This document shows positions 5,402 to 12,444 of a stretch of DNA of 64,000 nt, in pieces. Source of the DNA: Candidatus Kapaibacterium sp. (GTDB lineage: Bacteria; Bacteroidota; Ignavibacteria; Kapaibacteriales; NICIL-2). The notes under the pieces were generated by a model, which made no database searches, was not told the origin of the DNA, and was given only the letters and a program-made list of their open reading frames with translations. Each line of letters begins with the position of its first letter. Within the stretch, counting starts at the first letter, position 1. The translations under genes were made by a program, and so were the position numbers. The stretch is taken from NCBI GenBank assembly GCA_046297095.1, contig JBKCNS010000005.1, positions 19,500 through 83,499 on the forward strand, written 5' to 3'.

Positions 5402-6709
5402 ATGAATATTACCGAGCACCTGTGCCGCGAACTTTCTCAAGCCACTCTGGAAGTGGTTTCGCAGGGACGTTTTGCCAACAGTGTGGTGCAGAAGAAGTTC
5501 AAGGCCAACGCCCATTGGGATTCGGAAGAGAAGTCGTTCTTTGCGGAGTCGTTGTATTTCATTGTGCGTAATGCGCGGCGTTTGTGCGTGGCACTATCGA
5601 TAAGCGCCTGCGATACTGCATCCGAAGCGTTGAAGCTTGTGCATGCAACTCTCGTGCTGCACTCGCTATATGTGCCGCGTGGCATTCTTTCTGCGCATCG
5701 CCTGGAAGCCGCATTGGTGCACAAGCGTTGGGCAGATGCCGGTACCACCAGAGCTGTGGCCTATTCCTATCCGGACTGGCTGGATGAGTTGGGCGCCCGG
5801 CAATTCGGCGCGTCGTGGGACTCCATGGTTCATGCCTTGCATGCAGAGCCCAAAGTGGTGCTTAGGGCAAACTCTTTGAAAGTGACCAGAGAAGAGTTAG
5901 AGAGAAAGCTTCGTGCGCGCGAGATATCCTGCTCGTCGTCGGCACTCAGCCCTACGGCTACAGTGCTGGAGAATCACTACAATGTGTTTACACTGCCGGA
6001 ATTTCGCGATGGTTTATTCGAAGTTCAGGATGCCGGCTCGCAGTGTATTGCTCCGTTCTTGATGGCGGAACCGGGCATGAGGGTAATAGATGCCTGCGCC
6101 GGCAGCGGCGGCAAGTCTCTGCACTTAGCCGCGCTCATGAACAACAAGGGGCGCTTGATTGCTATGGACACGGAAGAGTGGAAGCTGACGGCTCTGGCGC
6201 AGCGGGCTCGAAGGGCGGGCGTGAGTATTATCGAAACACGGACCATCACCTCTACCAAAGTGGTGAAGCGTCAGCATGGTAGCGCCGATCGCGTACTGCT
6301 CGATGTGCCCTGTTCCGGTTTGGGAGTGCTGCGCAGAAATCCGGATACCAAGTGGCATATCACGGCGGCGGATATTGATCGCTTTGTTACTATTCAACGG
6401 GATATTCTGCGTCAATATGCGCCCATGACTGCGCCGGGCGGAGCCTTGGTGTATGCTACCTGCAGTATACTTCCGGCCGAGAGCGAAGATCAAGTGCGGT
6501 GGTTCCTGGCACAATCGCCGGAATGGACACTGGAAGATGAGCGCCGAGTGGAGCCGGGCAAACATGACGCCGATGGTTTTTACATGGCTCGCCTTCGGCG
6601 AGCAAAGGCAGATAAAGAAGTTAAAGTAGTTAAAGCAGACAAAGCAGGTAAAGTAGCCAACGCAGATGCTGCCGTTGACACACAGCAAAACGTTGAAATC
6701 GAAGAATAG
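5402..6709 (+). CDS. rsmB: RsmB/Sun (NOP2) family SAM-dependent rRNA cytosine-C5 methyltransferase with Lys/Asp-rich C-terminal tail
   Basis: Motifs [36 protein letters not shown] and YATCSI are diagnostic of RsmB/RsmF-type m5C methyltransferases. The C terminus carries [16 protein letters not shown] repeats. Confidence 0.7.
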
Positions 6710-6722
6710 CACGGATGGTATA

Positions 6723-7832
6723 ATGATCAACGAGATTCCAAACAACGCCGAGAATGCCGAGCATTCTTCTATACGTCTAACGCAATACAGTCACGGTGCG
6801 GGCTGCGGCTGCAAGCTGTCTCCTGCAGTGCTCGATCGTATTCTGCACACGAATGAAGCCGGAGCCGAATACCCGCGCTTGATTGTGGGGAACTCTACGC
6901 GCGATGATGCTGCCGTGTACGATTTGGGTGACGGTCGCGGACTCATTAGCACCACGGATTTTTTCATGCCCATTGTGGATGACCCCTACGACTTCGGCCG
7001 CATTGCCTCGGCCAATGCCATCAGCGATGTGTACGCAATGGGTGGAACTCCCGTGATGGCCATTGCTATTCTTGGATGGACCGTTGATAAACTGGCGCCG
7101 GAGATTGCATCGCAGGTGATTCGCGGAAGCCGCGCTGTGTGTGCCGAAGCGGGCATACCATTGGCAGGAGGTCATAGCATTGACTCGCCGGAACCCATTT
7201 TTGGTTTGGCGGTGAACGGGCTGGTGGATCTTTCTCGACTGAAGCAAAACTCCACAGCCACAGAGGGTTCTCGGCTGTACCTTACCAAAGGGCTGGGTGT
7301 GGGAATTCTTACCACCGCAGAAAAAAATGGTACGCTGAAGCCCGAGCATTATGGAGTAGCTACTGCTTCTATGACTCGCATCAACAGTATCGGTGCTGCC
7401 TTAGCTCAAATAGACGGCGTTACGGCCATGACGGATGTAACGGGCTTCGGGTTGCTTGGCCACTTGCTGGAAATGTGTACCGGTAGCGGCGTGAGCGCAG
7501 AGATTTCCTTCGAGTCGTTGCCGCGTATCGCCCAATTGGACGATTACATTTCGGCTCGATGCACGCCGGGCGGAACAAAAAGAAATTGGTTGAGTTACGG
7601 CTCGGGGTTGAATATGTCGCAGACCTTGAGTTTGGCTGAGCAATTCGATGAGCATTACTCAACCCTGGCACTGCTCTGCGATCCGCAAACCAGTGGCGGC
7701 TTGCTTGTGGCGGTACAAGAGGAATCCGCTGCTGCTGTAGAAGAATGCTTGCACGCCCACGGACTAGGTGCCTTTGCGCAGCCGGTAGGGCGCATTATTC
7801 GCAAAGATCACGCGCCGGTGCGTGTGCTCTAG
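6723..7832 (+). CDS. selD: selenide, water dikinase (selenophosphate synthetase), Cys-type
   Basis: [19 protein letters not shown]…DDAAVYDL…[21 protein letters not shown]…[14 protein letters not shown] is near-identical in pattern to E. coli SelD. The ATG at 6723 was verified. The active-site residue is Cys (GCGCK), not Sec. Confidence 0.9.
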
Positions 7833-7940
7833 ATGGCGGGAAAAATCTCTGCGTGAGGCAGTCCTCGTATTCGCGGCTACCTCGCTATTTTTGTGCCTTG
7901 CGAACGATAATTTTCGACACCAGAATCTCTCGGAGTACCA

Positions 7941-9026
7941 ATGAATATCGGCGTCCTGACGGAGTTACAATCCAACGAGCATCGTGTTGCTCTTACACCT
8001 GATGCAGTAAAGCAACTGAAGGCCAAGGGCTTTGCCGTAAATGTTCAAGCCGGAGCCGGACTTGCGGCCGCATACGACGACGATGCCTACACCGGCGCGG
8101 GAGCTACGATACTTCCGGGCGCAAAAGATGTCTGCGCACAAAGCGATGTGATTTGCAAAGTGCAAGCACCCACCACCGATGAAGTGGCCACCATGAAGAG
8201 CGACAGTACATTGATCTGTACCATGAATGCATGGAAGAATGCCGATGTGATTGCCGCACTCAAAGCAAAGAATATTACCTCGTTCGCTCTTGAATTGATT
8301 CCGCGTATCAGCCGTGCTCAGAGCATGGACATTCTCTCGTCCATGGCTTCGGTAGCGGGCTACAAGGCAGTGCTCACAGCGGCTAATCATAGCGGTCGAT
8401 TCTTCCCCATGTTGGTAACGGCTGCCGGAACACTTGCACCTACCAAGTGTTTGGTAATCGGTGCGGGAGTTGCGGGCTTGCAGGCAATTGCAACTGCTCG
8501 CCGTCTTGGCGCCATCGTTGAAGCATTCGATGTTCGCCCTGCAGTGCGCGAACAGGTCTTGAGCTTGGGTGCGAAGTTCGTTGATATCGATTTGGGAGAA
8601 CAGGATACGGAAACCAGCGGCGGCTATGCCAAAGAATTGAGCGAAGCAGCCAAGAAGAAACAGCAAGAAGGATTGGCAAAGCATATTGCTCAATCGGATG
8701 TGGTAATCACAACCGCAGCAATTCCCGGCAAGCCCGCTCCGAAGATTATTTCGGACGAGATGATTGCTATGATGAAGAATGGATCGGTAATTGTGGACCT
8801 TGCGGCGGAAACGGGTGGAAATACCTTCCAGACTAAGCCCGGTGAGACCGTTGTTACGGGCAACGGCGTCCATATTATCGGACCTGTGAACGTGCCGGCA
8901 AGCATGCCCTTCCACGCTTCACAGATGTACGCAAAGAATCTTGTGAACCTAATGATGCTCTTTGTAACCAAAGAAGGCATTAAGGTGCACAAGGACGACG
9001 AGATACTCAGCGCTTGCTGTGTGTAA
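7941..9026 (+). CDS. pntA: NAD(P) transhydrogenase alpha subunit, dI (NAD(H)-binding) part only (PntAA-like)
   Basis: MNIGVLTELQSNEHRVALTP…PRISRAQSMDILSSMASVAGY…GAGVAGLQAIATARRLGAIVEAFDVRP…TTAAIPGKPAPKIISDEMI…SVIVDLAAETGGN matches PntA dI far better than alanine dehydrogenase. The protein ends after about 361 aa, i.e. with no membrane dII segment. Confidence 0.75.
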   Translation: MNIGVLTELQSNEHRVALTPDAVKQLKAKGFAVNVQAGAGLAAAYDDDAYTGAGATILPGAKDVCAQSDVICKVQAPTTDEVATMKSDSTLICTMNAWKNADVIAALKAKNITSFALELIPRISRAQSMDILSSMASVAGYKAVLTAANHSGRFFPMLVTAAGTLAPTKCLVIGAGVAGLQAIATARRLGAIVEAFDVRPAVREQVLSLGAKFVDIDLGEQDTETSGGYAKELSEAAKKKQQEGLAKHIAQSDVVITTAAIPGKPAPKIISDEMIAMMKNGSVIVDLAAETGGNTFQTKPGETVVTGNGVHIIGPVNVPASMPFHASQMYAKNLVNLMMLFVTKEGIKVHKDDEILSACCV

Positions 9027-9160
9027 AACTATGTGTTGCCTGCATCGAATGCAGGTGCTATAATCGCGACCTTTTTTTCGTGAGGCGGGGACAAAGTTGA
9101 AGGGTTGGAAGGTTGTTTTACTAAGAAACTACTTCTGTACACTTTCAAACGAGGATTGTC

Positions 9161-10462
9161 ATGGCAACCAAGAAGAAGCCAGTGACCAAAAAGACATCGG
9201 TGAAATCGGCGGCAAAATCGTCGAGCAAAAAAACATCAACCGCTTCAGCGAAGAAGGTCAAAAAAGCAGTGGCAAAATCGAAGGCTGTAAAGCCGGCGGT
9301 TAAGAAAGCTGCGAAAAAAGTGGCCCCAAAGGCAACCAAGAACGTAGCCAAGAAGGTTACGAAGAAGAGCACCGCTGCAGCGACGTCCAAACGTGCCACA
9401 CCAAGCACGGCTAAGAGCAAAGTAAAGGTGAAGGTTAAGAGTAATGTCAAGACCGCCACCAAAGCTCAGGGCAAAAAGACGACAGCGAAAGCGGTGATAA
9501 AGAAATCACCGTTGCGGTCTGCAAAGTCCGCAGCTACAACACCAAAGAAGGGACTGATGAGTACAGCAGCAAAGAAGACGGCGGCGAAGAAAGCGGCGCC
9601 CAAAAAAGTTCAGGCAAAGAAAGTTGCACCCAAGAAAGTTGCACCTAAAAAAGTTGAAGCAAAGAAGGTTGTTGCCAAGAAGCCGGTAGCGGTAAAAGCA
9701 GCAAAGGCAGCTCCGGCAAAGAAGGTGGTAGCAAAAGAAGTGGTGAAAGCAGCACCGGCAAAAGTTCCGGCTAAAGCGCCCGAGACCAAAGTGGTGGCAA
9801 TACCCGCGCCTTCTAAAGGTGCACCTGCCAAGGCAATTGTGTTGTCTCGAGGCAATGGCCCCGTGCGCAGCCGTTCGCGCAAGCCCAGCGAGCGCGCTAC
9901 ACCGAAGCTGGAGCCGCGCGTAAAGAAAGACACATCGAAGAACGAAGCGATGTTCGAGCGCACCCAGTCTGCGCCTACCATCAGCGCTCCGAAGATTACC
10001 GAGTTTCTTTCTACGCCCTCGTACACAACTCCCGAGCCGGTAAAGCCGAAGCCGAACGTTCGTTATTCGGATAAGGATTTGAAAGTGTTTCGCGCGCTGA
10101 TCGAAAGCGAAAAGGAAAAAACGCTGGACGAGCTGCGCATGCTGAAAGAGCGCCTGGAAGATCTTACGAACTATGAAGCCTCAGAAGAGACAGCAGTGTA
10201 TTCCATGCACATGGCTGAGCAAGGATCGGAAGCAGTGGAGCGCGAAAAGACCTACGCTCAGATTCAGCGCACCACCGATTATCTGCGTAAGCTGGACGAA
10301 GCAATGATTCGTATCGAGGAGAAAACGTACGGCATCTGCCGTCAGTGCGGAATCCTTATTGCTCGCGAGCGCTTAATGGCAGTGCCGATCACGACTCTGT
10401 CTGCATCGTGGAAGCTGCGTCAGCAGTGCCCCACAGACGGCATCGACAAAGTGGGTCGGTAA
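9161..10462 (+). CDS. histone-H1-like Lys/Ala-rich protein fused to a C-terminal DksA/TraR-type coiled-coil plus degenerate zinc-finger domain
   Basis: The first ~230 aa are KKAAKKVAPK-type low complexity, encoded by 15-nt tandem repeats around 9600-9670. The last ~110 aa (LKVFRALIESEKEKTLDELRMLKERLEDL…YGICRQCGILIARERLMAVPITTL…C) resemble the DksA/TraR fold, but only 3 of the 4 Cys are present. Confidence 0.7.
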   Translation: MATKKKPVTKKTSVKSAAKSSSKKTSTASAKKVKKAVAKSKAVKPAVKKAAKKVAPKATKNVAKKVTKKSTAAATSKRATPSTAKSKVKVKVKSNVKTATKAQGKKTTAKAVIKKSPLRSAKSAATTPKKGLMSTAAKKTAAKKAAPKKVQAKKVAPKKVAPKKVEAKKVVAKKPVAVKAAKAAPAKKVVAKEVVKAAPAKVPAKAPETKVVAIPAPSKGAPAKAIVLSRGNGPVRSRSRKPSERATPKLEPRVKKDTSKNEAMFERTQSAPTISAPKITEFLSTPSYTTPEPVKPKPNVRYSDKDLKVFRALIESEKEKTLDELRMLKERLEDLTNYEASEETAVYSMHMAEQGSEAVEREKTYAQIQRTTDYLRKLDEAMIRIEEKTYGICRQCGILIARERLMAVPITTLSASWKLRQQCPTDGIDKVGR

Positions 10463-10520
10463 TTGGCTGAATCGACAACGTGCGTCGGTAACAGGCTGAA
10501 TCGACAAAGTGGGTCGGTAA
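10442..10520. repeat. 3 tandem copies of a ~29-bp unit (atcgacaaagtgggtcggtaa plus an 8-nt spacer)
   Basis: Direct reading: copies at 10442-10462, 10471-10491 and 10500-10520. The first copy carries the stop codon of the upstream gene. Confidence 0.8.
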
Positions 10521-10740
10521 CCGACTTCATTGTCACACTTCGAAGAATTCAAACCGACATTCAGACATTCAATAAGCAAGCCTCGTCACCATGTGATGGG
10601 GCTTGTGTGTTTTAGGGGAGATGTGGGGCCAAGAGGCTGCGCACATTTACGCTGCGCGGGGTATTTTGCGGCACCGCAGCAGCACTATAGTTGCGGTGAG
10701 GGAAGCGGATACGGAACGATCTCAATTTGGGAGAACAACA

Positions 10741-11265
10741 ATGGCAATAGCAGGCGCATTTCATTTGCAATCGTGGATTGATGAGCACAGGGATTTGTTG
10801 AAACCCCCGGTGGGCAATCAGTGCATCTACGAGAACACAGATTTTATCGTAATGATTGTAGGCGGCCCGAACTCGCGAAAGGATTATCACTTCAACGAAG
10901 GCGAAGAGCTGTTCTACCAGCTCGAAGGAGATGTGGTGGTAAAAATCATCGACGAAGGCAAGCCCCGCGATATTCATATTCGTCAGGGCGATATGTTTTT
11001 GTTGCCGCCTCGCACTCCGCACTCGCCGCAGCGCGGAGCCAATACGGTAGGCTTCGTAATTGAACGCAAGCGCGAGACTAAAGAGATGGACGGCTTCCAG
11101 TGGTACTGCGAGAATTGCGGAGACAAACTCTACGAAGAGTTCGAATACGTTACAGACATTGTAAAGCAATTGCCGCCAATCTTTGAGCGCTTTTACGGTA
11201 ACCCGGATCACTGTACATGCAAGAAGTGCGGCACGGTGATGGAAGCCCCCAAGAAGCTTGTATAA
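10741..11265 (+). CDS. 3-hydroxyanthranilate 3,4-dioxygenase (cupin)
   Basis: ATG verified at 10741. The 175-aa product has a cupin core (YHFNEGEELFYQLEGDVVV…IRQGDMFLLPPRTPHSPQR) and a C-terminal rubredoxin-like CENCG…CTCKKCG pair, typical of HAAO/NbaC. Confidence 0.85.
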   Translation: MAIAGAFHLQSWIDEHRDLLKPPVGNQCIYENTDFIVMIVGGPNSRKDYHFNEGEELFYQLEGDVVVKIIDEGKPRDIHIRQGDMFLLPPRTPHSPQRGANTVGFVIERKRETKEMDGFQWYCENCGDKLYEEFEYVTDIVKQLPPIFERFYGNPDHCTCKKCGTVMEAPKKLV

Positions 11266-11433
11266 GCAGATAAAGTGTGTAGTGTGGCTGTCATGATAAT
11301 CGCATCTGTTGAATAGTTATGTGCATGAGCGAAGATTAGAAACAGGATGAATACTCACGACTCGCACAAACAATCACTAACTCCACGAACCACGTATTCA
11401 AGCGCTTTGTAGCACCCTACGTTAAATGCATCC

Positions 11434-12444
11434 ATGAAGATTGATATTCACGCACACCTTATGCCCCAAACCTGGCCCTCGCTGAAGGACAAGTATGGCT
11501 ATGGTGGTTTTATTGCGTTGGATCATCACGTTCCCGATGCAGCTCGCATGATGCGGGACGACGGTGTGTTCTTTAGAGAGGTGCAGCGCAACTGCTGGGA
11601 TGCCGAGTGGGTGCTCCGCGACATGGACGAGCACCACGTGGATGTGAGCGTGCTGTATACCGTTCCGGTGCTGTTCTCGTACTTCGCTCAGCCGGCGCAT
11701 GGCCATGAGTGGTCACGGTTTTTGAACGATCATCTTGCCGATGTGGTAGCCCGCCATCCCAAACGTTTTGTGGCGATGGGCACCGTGCCCATGCAGGATG
11801 TAGATCGCGCAATCGAAGAAATGACTCGCTGTGTGCAGGAGCTGGGCATGCCAGGATTGCAAATAGGGTCTAATATCAACGGCATGAATCTGGACGATCC
11901 CGCGTTGTTTCCTTTTTATGCCGAAGCAGAGCGATTGGGCTGCAGACTAGTGATACACCCGTGGGAAATGCTCGGAGGCGATCGCTTAACGAAGTACTTT
12001 TCCCCTTGGCTTGTGGGCATGCCTGCAGAAACCACGCTTGCGCTTACGTCCATGATATTCGGCGGAGTGTTCGACCGCTTCCCCAAACTTCGTGTGTTGT
12101 TTACTCATGCAGGAGGGTCGTTCTTGTTTACTCTTGGGCGAATCTCTCATGGCTGGCATGCGCGGCCGGATCTGTGCAACGTTCACGGCATCAGCGATCC
12201 CAGAACCTACACAAATCGTTTTTGGGTAGACGGCATAACGCACGACCTCCGTGCTTTGCAATACGTATTGGATGTAATGGGCGACACTCGCGTATGCTAT
12301 GGCACAGACTATCCCTTTCCGCTTGGCGATCTTGAGCACGGGCGATTTATCGAGGAATCATCGTTGGATAAAGCTACCATCGACCGCCTGCTCTGCGATA
12401 ATGCACTTGAGTTCTTAGGAATGGACAAACAGAGGTTTCTGTAA
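11434..12444 (+). CDS. 2-amino-3-carboxymuconate-6-semialdehyde decarboxylase (ACMSD; amidohydrolase-2 family)
   Basis: MKIDIHAHLMPQTWP…FGYGG…NCWD…MPGLQIGSNING…LVIHPW…WLVGMPAETT…THAGGSFLFTLGRISHGW…GTDYPFPLGDLE aligns along the whole length with ACMSD/NbaD. Confidence 0.85.
   Translation: MKIDIHAHLMPQTWPSLKDKYGYGGFIALDHHVPDAARMMRDDGVFFREVQRNCWDAEWVLRDMDEHHVDVSVLYTVPVLFSYFAQPAHGHEWSRFLNDHLADVVARHPKRFVAMGTVPMQDVDRAIEEMTRCVQELGMPGLQIGSNINGMNLDDPALFPFYAEAERLGCRLVIHPWEMLGGDRLTKYFSPWLVGMPAETTLALTSMIFGGVFDRFPKLRVLFTHAGGSFLFTLGRISHGWHARPDLCNVHGISDPRTYTNRFWVDGITHDLRALQYVLDVMGDTRVCYGTDYPFPLGDLEHGRFIEESSLDKATIDRLLCDNALEFLGMDKQRFL

Follow-up and report, generated by a model that had tools for sequence, protein, structure and literature searches.

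In the 64,000-nucleotide stretch of Candidatus Kapaibacterium sp. DNA analysed here (contig JBKCNS010000005.1 of assembly GCA_046297095.1; hereafter the window), a gene on the forward strand encodes a protein in which a long lysine-rich N-terminal tail is joined to a C-terminal module with the fold of DksA, a regulator of RNA polymerase (RNAP). It is nearly certain that the protein is truly bipartite, with the DksA-fold C terminus and the disordered polycationic N terminus both selectively maintained. Our best reading is that it represents, in a Kapabacteria-type bacterium (Bacteroidota/Chlorobiota group), a bipartite transcription factor resembling DdbA (SCO2075) of Streptomyces coelicolor, a bifunctional nucleoid-associated DksA-like protein (Aldridge et al. 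2013, PMC3643593). By analogy, we consider it probable that the coiled coil of the module engages the secondary channel of RNAP while the tail binds DNA non-specifically, an arrangement that would enrich the factor at the nucleoid and might help to compact the DNA. An earlier prediction made from the sequence alone (the original prediction) had given the open reading frame (ORF) exactly as the ORF listing has it (9161..10462, +, ATG start, 433 aa) and had described it as a histone-H1-like domain fused to a degenerate DksA/TraR module. The two-module architecture is borne out by composition, by the Pfam family zf-dskA_traR, by the DksA fold and by a continuous ORF in relatives (Table 1).

Table 1. 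Features of the gene and its flanks; positions are those of the window.
Feature	Position	Strand	Basis
Complete coding sequence, 433 aa	9161..10462	+	ATG start, GAGGA just 5'
Polycationic low-complexity tail, residues 1-235, H1 C-terminal-tail-like by composition	9161..9865	+	Composition, no Pfam match, low pLDDT
S/P/R/T-rich linker (also K), residues 236-298	9866..10054	+	Composition; low pLDDT in single-sequence model
DksA-fold module, residues 299-433 (~135 aa)	10055..10459	+	Profiles, AF2 model, Foldseek
Antiparallel coiled coil: helix 304-344, tip loop, helix 351-386	10070..10318	+	DSSP on AF2 model (H15-55, H62-97 of the fragment from residue 290)
Coiled-coil tip AVYSMHMAEQGSE, residues 345-357	10193..10231	+	Conservation in 120 sequences
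Variant finger YGIC393RQC396-x17-S414AS-W417-K418-LRQQ-C423-P-T-D426-G-I-D429	10328..10447	+	120-homologue alignment
Tandem 15/30/45-nt repeat array, (A/V)(A/Q/E)(P/A)KK pentapeptides (KKVAPKKVAPKK...)	9568..9671	+	Rows of Tandem Repeats Finder (TRF)
29-nt tandem repeat, 2.8 copies, head to tail (ATCGACAAAGTGGGTCGGTAAC + 7 nt)	10442..10521	+	TRF; 3 matches vs 0 expected by chance
Promoter-like site TTGCCT-17-TATAAT, extended -10 TG, ~100 nt 5' of ATG	9036..9064	+	Consensus match 10/12
Terminator-like hairpin, 14 pairs, then GTGTTTT tail	10576..10606	+	Hairpin prediction
Antisense 105-aa L/F-rich ORF	9145..9462	-	Mirror of AAG/AAA-rich sense strand

A disordered polycationic tail precedes the folded module

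The first 235 residues, which begin with MATKKKPVTKK, consist of 29% Lys, 23% Ala, 13% Val, 9% Thr, 8% Ser and 8% Pro, and with only three acidic residues they carry a net charge of +69 at an isoelectric point (pI) of 11.6. In lysine content they stand far outside the rest of the window and what chance would give: the best 60-residue segment holds 23 Lys, compared with 9 in the runner-up and a median of 3 among the 299 open segments of the window. The tail is thus of low complexity, as predicted, but it is a mixture of K, A, V, T, S and P and not pure KKAAKK. Parts of the linker that follows are kept in close orthologues (IVLSRGNGPVR..., NEAMFERTQSAPTISAPKITEF and TPEPVKPKPN), and residues 301-433 form an ordinary mixed-charge domain with a pI of 5.6. 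In a single-sequence AlphaFold2 (AF2) model of the full protein, the predicted local distance difference test score (pLDDT) is ~40 for residues 1-300, which is consistent with disorder in this part.

The likeness to H1, Hc1 and Hc2 that had been proposed holds for composition and, judging from profile searches, for composition only. Residues 1-235 gave zero Pfam matches at E <= 0.01, no linker-histone, HC1, HC2 or H1-like Pfam model was matched by the whole protein at E <= 1, and the NCBIfam model hist_H1_lk_Burk (NF038053) scored 24.2 bits against a cut-off of 80. We therefore reject true homology of the tail to these proteins, for which Pfam and NCBIfam give no profile support.

The C-terminal module belongs to the DksA family

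Several lines of evidence place the C-terminal part of the protein in the DksA/TraR fold. The Pfam family zf-dskA_traR (PF01258) was matched at 26.4 bits by the full protein and at 28.3 bits by its C-terminal 160 residues, both above the cut-off of 24.9. Of the 36 profile positions, 2-27 are aligned, with the match ending before the second CxxC. The best NCBIfam model was yteA (TIGR02890), with 73.2-75.7 bits under a cut-off of 134.4, so that assignment to this subfamily is not supported. The best sequence match in the PDB was Chlamydia trachomatis DksA (6ptg, E 2e-10), followed by E. coli DksA (1tjl, 8e-6), with 2kq9 and Pseudomonas aeruginosa DksA2 (4ijj) as further matches. For residues 290-433, AF2 modelling with an alignment of 120 homologues reached a pLDDT of 84.8 and gave a model of two long helices and a small C-terminal globule, that is, the long antiparallel coiled coil and small globular finger domain of the DksA/TraR fold. 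When this model was used as a Foldseek query, all top eight matches were members of the DksA family, led by 4ijj, 1tjl, 5vsw and 7khi. The original prediction had made the proposal depend on structural similarity to DksA/TraR, and the model and these matches provide it. The coiled coil and finger had been placed in the last ~110 residues; the layout is indeed that of DksA, but the core is longer, at ~135 residues (299-433).

The most conserved stretch of the family is the tip of the coiled coil, (I/V)YSMHMAEQGSEA. In the alignment of 120 homologues, to which all statements on invariance refer, H350, E353, Q354, G355, E357 and E360 are invariant, so that the acidic residues E353, E357 and E360 just after the tip are found in every sequence, and Y347, S348, M349, M351 and A352 are nearly so. 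The alignment holds 35 invariant columns in all, concentrated at the tip and the finger, which points to functional constraint on the module. Relative to E. coli DksA (1tjl), a phmmer alignment places a 10-residue insertion at the tip. The same alignment pairs E. coli R91, K98 and K139 with the invariant R370, K377 and K418, and L95 with Y374; L95, K98, R129 and K139 of E. coli DksA reportedly make up ppGpp (guanosine tetraphosphate) site 2, a finding said to go back to Ross et al. in 2016.

The finger was predicted as CxxC-x17-S...C with one Cys lost. This pattern is present as described, but both Cys of the second canonical pair are replaced, by S414 and W417, and the remaining C423 is an extra, non-canonical residue six positions beyond. 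The pattern C..C...TTLSAS[YW]K....CP.DG.D is present in every complete finger of the 120 listed homologues, CxxC-x17-S-x2-[W/Y]-x5-C-P-x-D is invariant across the alignment, and the invariant columns of the finger are C393, C396, S414, A415, K418, C423, P424, D426, G427 and D429. Orthologues thus do not keep all four Cys, as the original prediction had considered they might; Ser and Trp/Tyr at the second pair are a fixed feature of the clade. Because the variant pattern is invariant across the aligned homologues, we reject a decayed finger and regard it, from this alignment, as a stable conserved variant of the lineage. The term degenerate also misfits the module as a whole, which ranks with the best-conserved parts of the protein and is 93% identical to the syntenic orthologue (locus L001; L numbers denote loci of relatives), a protein whose tail can barely be aligned with that of the window.

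C4 fingers bind zinc, and the C2 and C1 forms are zinc-free, with the motif CxxS/T-x17-C/S/TxxA (PMC9126822). Judged by its residues, the layout of two Cys, Ser and Trp plus a distal Cys matches none of these classes exactly. Since three Cys and several Asp residues are invariant, a Cys3-Asp metal site and a metal-free finger are both possible.

The fusion is found in independent assemblies

A search for protein homologues returned 592 matches, named Candidatus Kapaibacterium, Kapabacteria, Ignavibacteria, Chlorobi/Chlorobiota or Bacteroidota. Re-calling the gene in four more independent assemblies gave the same continuous ORF, with 445 aa in L004, 390 aa in L006, 360 aa in L001 and 382 aa in L008, each starting with MAT or MAA and preceded, 6-9 nt upstream, by a purine-rich Shine-Dalgarno-like (SD-like) element. 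The orthologue in L001 (GCA_044228685.1) is annotated with only 249 aa (P0002), and its frame extends without a stop to an ATG from which the protein would be 360 aa long and start with MATSKNSKKK. The public annotation of this assembly places a 107-aa antisense ORF (5541-5864, -) over the K-rich part of the gene (5668-6750, +); from the reading frames, we take this antisense call to be spurious and to have led to the shortened, 249-aa call for the DksA-like gene. The same shortening probably affects many of the family's database entries (125-250 aa), and tail lengths in protein databases would therefore be underestimates. An antisense ORF also lies over the tail in the window (Table 1), and we reject it as a gene, since it is a by-product of the lysine codons of the sense strand.

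An in-frame internal ATG (M264 in NEAMFERTQ, 9950-9955) lies 5' of the conserved MFERTQSAP in the window and in L004, L006 and L001, and the position is a Leu in L008. A tail-less isoform initiated at M264 is conceivable but unsupported.

Tails vary in length and type across relatives

From the 550 relatives that turned up in a contig scan, the best 80 loci were retained, and the 73 complete ones among them were measured. The N-terminal extension before the DksA core was read from the longest ORF, counted from whichever of ATG, GTG or TTG comes first in the open frame, and is thus an upper estimate. It has a median of 145 aa and reaches 323 aa; it is at least 100 aa long in 39 of the 73 loci, at least 200 aa in 23, and shorter than 30 aa in seven. 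The extensions are of several kinds. Purely basic K/A/P tails carry net charges of +49 to +99 (e.g., L039, L040, L051, L055 and L081), others are K/E-rich and of mixed charge (e.g., L023, L026 and L030), and some are short and contain canonical AT-hooks, namely KKRGRPKK (L065, L078 and L080) or RGRGRPRK (L047). A motif KPKR[V/I]CKPRKK is kept in the tails of L056, L058, L068, L073, L074 and L077, and in one relative (P0106) a Pfam IF2_N domain (E 2.5e-12) stands in front of the K-rich segment.

The same architecture extends beyond this clade. An exhaustive HMMER search of 1.84 billion cluster representatives (50% identity) gave 4164 matches, of which the best 150 were analysed; among these 150, an extension of 80 aa or more is present in 90, and 65 of the 90 are basic and K-rich (at least 15% K and a net charge of at least +15). 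Such basic tails of at least 80 aa occur, again among the best 150, in 25 of the 51 representatives with the finger class of this clade (CC-S-[Y/W]), in 20 of 40 with the C1-type finger GICRVTGKLI..VPHATLSIEAK, in 4 of 18 with a C4 finger, in 4 of 10 with CC-H-C and in 5 of 9 with CCC-Y. Taken together, H1-like, AT-hook or K/E-rich tails appear in at least five finger classes.

Within the tail of the window, the DNA repeats are more limited than had been predicted. Tandem 15-nt repeats do encode part of the tail, but tandem repeats span only ~100 nt of its 705 nt; TRF restricts the 15-nt period to 9615-9671 (3.8 copies, 80% matches), with overlapping 15-, 30- and 45-nt rows from 9568. Copy-number variation of the Lys repeats between strains, which the original prediction had suggested counting, was found: compared with the window, the 98%-identical relative L004 is 45 nt longer in the repeat (three KKVAP units) and 9 nt shorter at a later point, differences that we read from the sequences as in-frame repeat slippage.

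Comparison with known proteins

DdbA combines an H1-like N terminus with a DksA-like C terminus. In vitro, DNA is bound and condensed by its N-terminal and not by its C-terminal domain; a relA phenotype is suppressed by overexpression of full-length DdbA and not of the N-terminal domain alone; and the length of its tail differs among streptomycetes, the only organisms in which the authors detected orthologues (PMC3643593). Judged from this published description, the protein of the window has a DdbA-type architecture, the tail varies in length among orthologues of both proteins, and the role proposed for both is the coupling of DNA conformation or the nucleoid to RNAP regulation. The two nevertheless differ in their details. 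DdbA is described as having a C4 zinc finger and equivalents of D71 and D74, neither of which is found in our protein, where the finger is CxxC-x17-SxxW with a distal Cys and the tip is YSMHMAEQ. The tail of DdbA is ~93 aa long, compared with ~235-300 aa here, and DdbA belongs to the Actinomycetota, the protein of the window to the Bacteroidota/Chlorobiota group. Because DdbA keeps the C4 finger and the tip Asp residues, because the phylum differs and because its authors detected DdbA orthologues in streptomycetes only, an independent, convergent fusion on a different DksA subtype is likely, with DdbA compared by its published description. The original prediction had called the combination unusual, which it is not, given the precedent of DdbA (PMC3643593) and its frequency among relatives; its further idea, that RNAP regulation is tethered to the nucleoid, is reasonable by analogy and is essentially what was proposed for DdbA (PMC3643593).

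Among solved structures, the closest relative by sequence is C. trachomatis DksA (CT407, 6ptg), whose tip, YSQHQADQGTD, shares with ours the signature YS.H.A[DE]QG[ST][DE]. Chlamydia DksA is of the C1 type, with one Cys, whereas three Cys are invariant here, and neither it, nor Bacillus YteA, which resembles our protein by the best (sub-threshold) NCBIfam score, nor YlyA of B. subtilis has a polycationic tail. E. coli DksA (1tjl; RNAP complexes 5vsw and 7khi) and the Zn-independent DksA2 of P. aeruginosa (4ijj) are closest in structure, as the top Foldseek matches; the protein of the window differs from them in having neither DxxDxA nor a C4 finger, in a Val in place of R129 and in an N-terminal extension of 300 aa.

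Analogous designs occur outside the DksA family. Myxobacterial CarD joins an RNAP-binding CarD_CdnL_TRCF domain to an HMGA-like (AT-hook) or histone-H1-like tail, which "maximises activity" (PMC4374960; Garcia-Heras et al. 2009 PNAS, as cited there). CarD thus likewise combines a folded RNAP-binding module with a disordered basic DNA-binding tail, and its H1-like and AT-hook tails are interchangeable across species, as are the tails among the relatives described above. In contrast, the module of CarD is an unrelated Tudor-like domain that sits on RNAP beta and is not a secondary-channel coiled coil, its tail is C-terminal, and it needs a partner, CarG. Chlamydial Hc1/Hc2, the Burkholderia H1-like protein and AlgP share K/A/P-rich repeats and a high pI with our tail; they are stand-alone proteins with no DksA module, and gave no significant profile match.

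Proposed function and alternative explanations

Based on these comparisons, we propose that the C-terminal module would dock on RNAP by analogy with DksA, DksA2 and YlyA, and that the conserved tip YSMHMAEQGSE would be inserted into the secondary channel and thereby modulate initiation. The N-terminal ~235-300 residues, a disordered polycation, would bind DNA non-specifically by analogy with DdbA, the H1 C-tail and the CarD tail, keeping the factor concentrated on the nucleoid beside RNAP and possibly contributing to DNA compaction. RNAP binding, DNA binding, any ppGpp response and the zinc status of the finger are thus what we infer for this protein; for DNA binding, the suggestion comes from the charge of +69, from the AT-hooks that occupy the same position in relatives and from the precedent of DdbA.

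A number of observations weigh against this proposal. On the side of the module, the DksA equivalogs of NCBIfam scored far below their cut-offs (TIGR02420, 44.6-46.5 bits vs 115.5; NF033459, 43.8-46.5 vs 105; NF008045, 24.9-28 vs 289), the DxxDxA of E. coli DksA (D71, D74 and A76) is not at the tip, where Y347-S-M-H350-M-A352-E-Q is found instead, the second CxxC is gone, so that the finger does not have the canonical C4 form CxxC-x17-CxxC, and E. coli R129 corresponds to V408 in the phmmer alignment. Moreover, Chlamydia DksA failed to complement an E. coli dksA mutant (PMC9126822), which makes a canonical activity in synergy with ppGpp doubtful. On the side of the tail, in about half of the relatives that have a tail, the tail is of the K/E mixed-charge kind and low in net charge, a poorer fit to pure DNA coating, and Lys-rich tails can bind polyanions other than DNA: AlgP, a KPAA-repeat protein long called H1-like, is reported to act on and organise polyphosphate (polyP) granules (PMC9239181).

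This last point leads to an alternative in which the modules are the same while the tail targets another polyanion (polyP granules, rRNA or ribosomes, nascent RNA or acidic membranes) or drives condensates, so that the protein would link RNAP regulation to polyP or stress status and not to the nucleoid. Besides AlgP, it draws on a tail that has no sequence-specific DNA-binding domain and no Pfam match, on the K/E-rich polyampholyte tails of many relatives and on the IF2_N domain before the K-rich segment of P0106. We nevertheless consider it rather unlikely, given that AT-hooks, which are minor-groove binders, replace the K-rich tail in several relatives and that the tail of DdbA, the one protein of this design studied by experiment, mediates DNA binding and condensation (PMC3643593). 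It could also be argued that the tail is a largely neutral expansion driven by slippage, a tolerated spacer in front of an ordinary YlyA/DksA-like factor. Fast evolution of the tail (433, 445, 390, 360 and 382 aa in close relatives), the 45-nt and 9-nt indels between 98%-identical strains and the near absence of an extension in 7 of 73 family members would all fit such drift. However, a positive charge and a K/A/P composition are maintained over hundreds of residues in many lineages and finger classes, the frame is open in every relative examined, and equivalent basic motifs (AT-hooks and KPKR[V/I]CKPRKK) stand at the same place, which renders this explanation quite improbable in our view.

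The fusion could, finally, be an artefact, either of an assembly frameshift joining two genes or of a start that in reality is internal, the K-rich part then being untranslated leader. Shorter public calls exist in close relatives (P0002, 249 aa; P0003, 125 aa), and one contig (L003) breaks inside the repeat. Against this stand the same frame, MAT/MAA start and SD-like element in independent assemblies, the spurious antisense ORF over the K-rich part that accompanies the short P0002 call, indels that are multiples of three, a conserved promoter-like element that is located upstream of the long ORF and not within it, and dozens of database proteins called at full length with K-rich N termini. 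Because four further independent assemblies keep the ORF, we reject the frameshift that the original prediction had put forward as its possible undoing, and an artefact of either kind is extremely improbable. We therefore retain the DdbA-like factor, with an RNAP-binding module and a DNA-binding tail, as the preferred reading.

DksA-family proteins are central regulators of RNAP, and what is known of them comes mostly from Proteobacteria. The design of a histone-like tail plus DksA, reported once, in Streptomyces, and thought to be specific to that genus, is common in an unrelated and mostly uncultivated group. There its module is of another DksA subtype, Chlamydia/YteA-like, whose finger has three Cys and whose tip lacks DxxDxA, and tails are interchangeable with AT-hooks. 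The DdbA-type architecture itself was already known; for specialists the value lies in how broadly and how often the fusion recurs, in the new three-Cys type of finger and in the systematic mis-annotation of these genes. Gene callers cut them short or place a spurious antisense ORF over the Lys codons, which would have led to under-counting of the architecture in databases. The relatives also offer a natural comparative series for how DNA tethering alters the action of a secondary-channel factor. We put forward tentatively, and with some doubt, the broader idea that in Kapabacteria/Ignavibacteria and several other metagenomic DksA-like sub-lineages the conserved ileS-linked YlyA/DksA-type factor generally carries a rapidly evolving, basic and disordered tail that tethers it. 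If true, tethering of secondary-channel regulators to the nucleoid or to condensates would be a general, so far undescribed strategy and not a Streptomyces curiosity, and its strength could be quickly tunable via slippage in the 15-nt repeats.

Expression unit and genomic context

An extended -10-like element (TGnTATAATCGC / TGTTATTATCGC) is kept ~100 nt upstream of the gene in L004, L006, L001, L009 and L012, and its conservation at this distance implies a long 5' leader. A hairpin followed by a T-run is likewise seen 3' of the orthologous genes of L006, L001 and L008, and from these sequence signals the gene is probably monocistronic. Overlapping its 3' end is the 29-nt tandem repeat, whose first copy includes the six final codons of the gene together with its stop; GGTAA is present in each copy. 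The repeat is also found, with a few substitutions, in L004 (3416-3495) and is absent from L006, L001 and L008. An Rfam search of the long 5' leader and the 3' repeats gave one chance-level match only (HOTTIP_3, E 0.28), and a structured RNA in either is rejected for want of Rfam support.

The upstream neighbours (6666-9026) are a selD-like AIRS protein and an AlaDh/PNT-family protein, and the downstream ones (10603-12444) are a 3-hydroxyanthranilate 3,4-dioxygenase (3-HAO, PF06052) and an Amidohydro_2 protein that is possibly ACMSD-like. The order in L001 (selD-like, AlaDh/PNT, the DksA-like gene X, DUF354 on the minus strand, 3-HAO, glyoxalase, amidohydrolase and ABC transporter) is syntenic with the window. 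None of these neighbours has an obvious functional link to the DksA-like gene.

In most relatives the gene has other neighbours: among the best 80 loci, ileS lies upstream in 64, lspA downstream in 59 and rluD downstream in 46, as confirmed with Pfam (examples among L013-L083 are L053 28-2898, L032 2254-3021 and L042 4698-6080). We take this order, ileS-X-lspA-rluD, to be the ileS-ylyA-lspA-rluD arrangement of B. subtilis. Because the context resembles that of B. subtilis ylyA, and because chlamydial dksA adjoins lspA (PMC9126822), the family looks like the counterpart of the YlyA/chlamydial-DksA lineage in the FCB group (Fibrobacteres-Chlorobi-Bacteroidetes). The gene of the window does not share this YteA/YlyA context, neither ileS nor lspA being found in the 64 kb, and it sits outside the ileS-lspA context throughout its sub-clade (the window, L001, L004 and L006-L012). 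Since the best 80 of the 550 relatives include no second locus from the same assemblies, relocation of the gene in this sub-clade is more likely than duplication, with a divergent paralogue as the remaining possibility.

The gene is also carried by records titled "uncultured Hyphomicrobiales" or "Bradyrhizobiaceae" (L017, L019, L033, L047, L049, L056, L060, L076, L077, L079 and L081). In most of these it lies in the ileS-lspA context typical of Ignavibacteria/Kapabacteria, and the taxonomic labels of these metagenome-assembled genomes are probably wrong.

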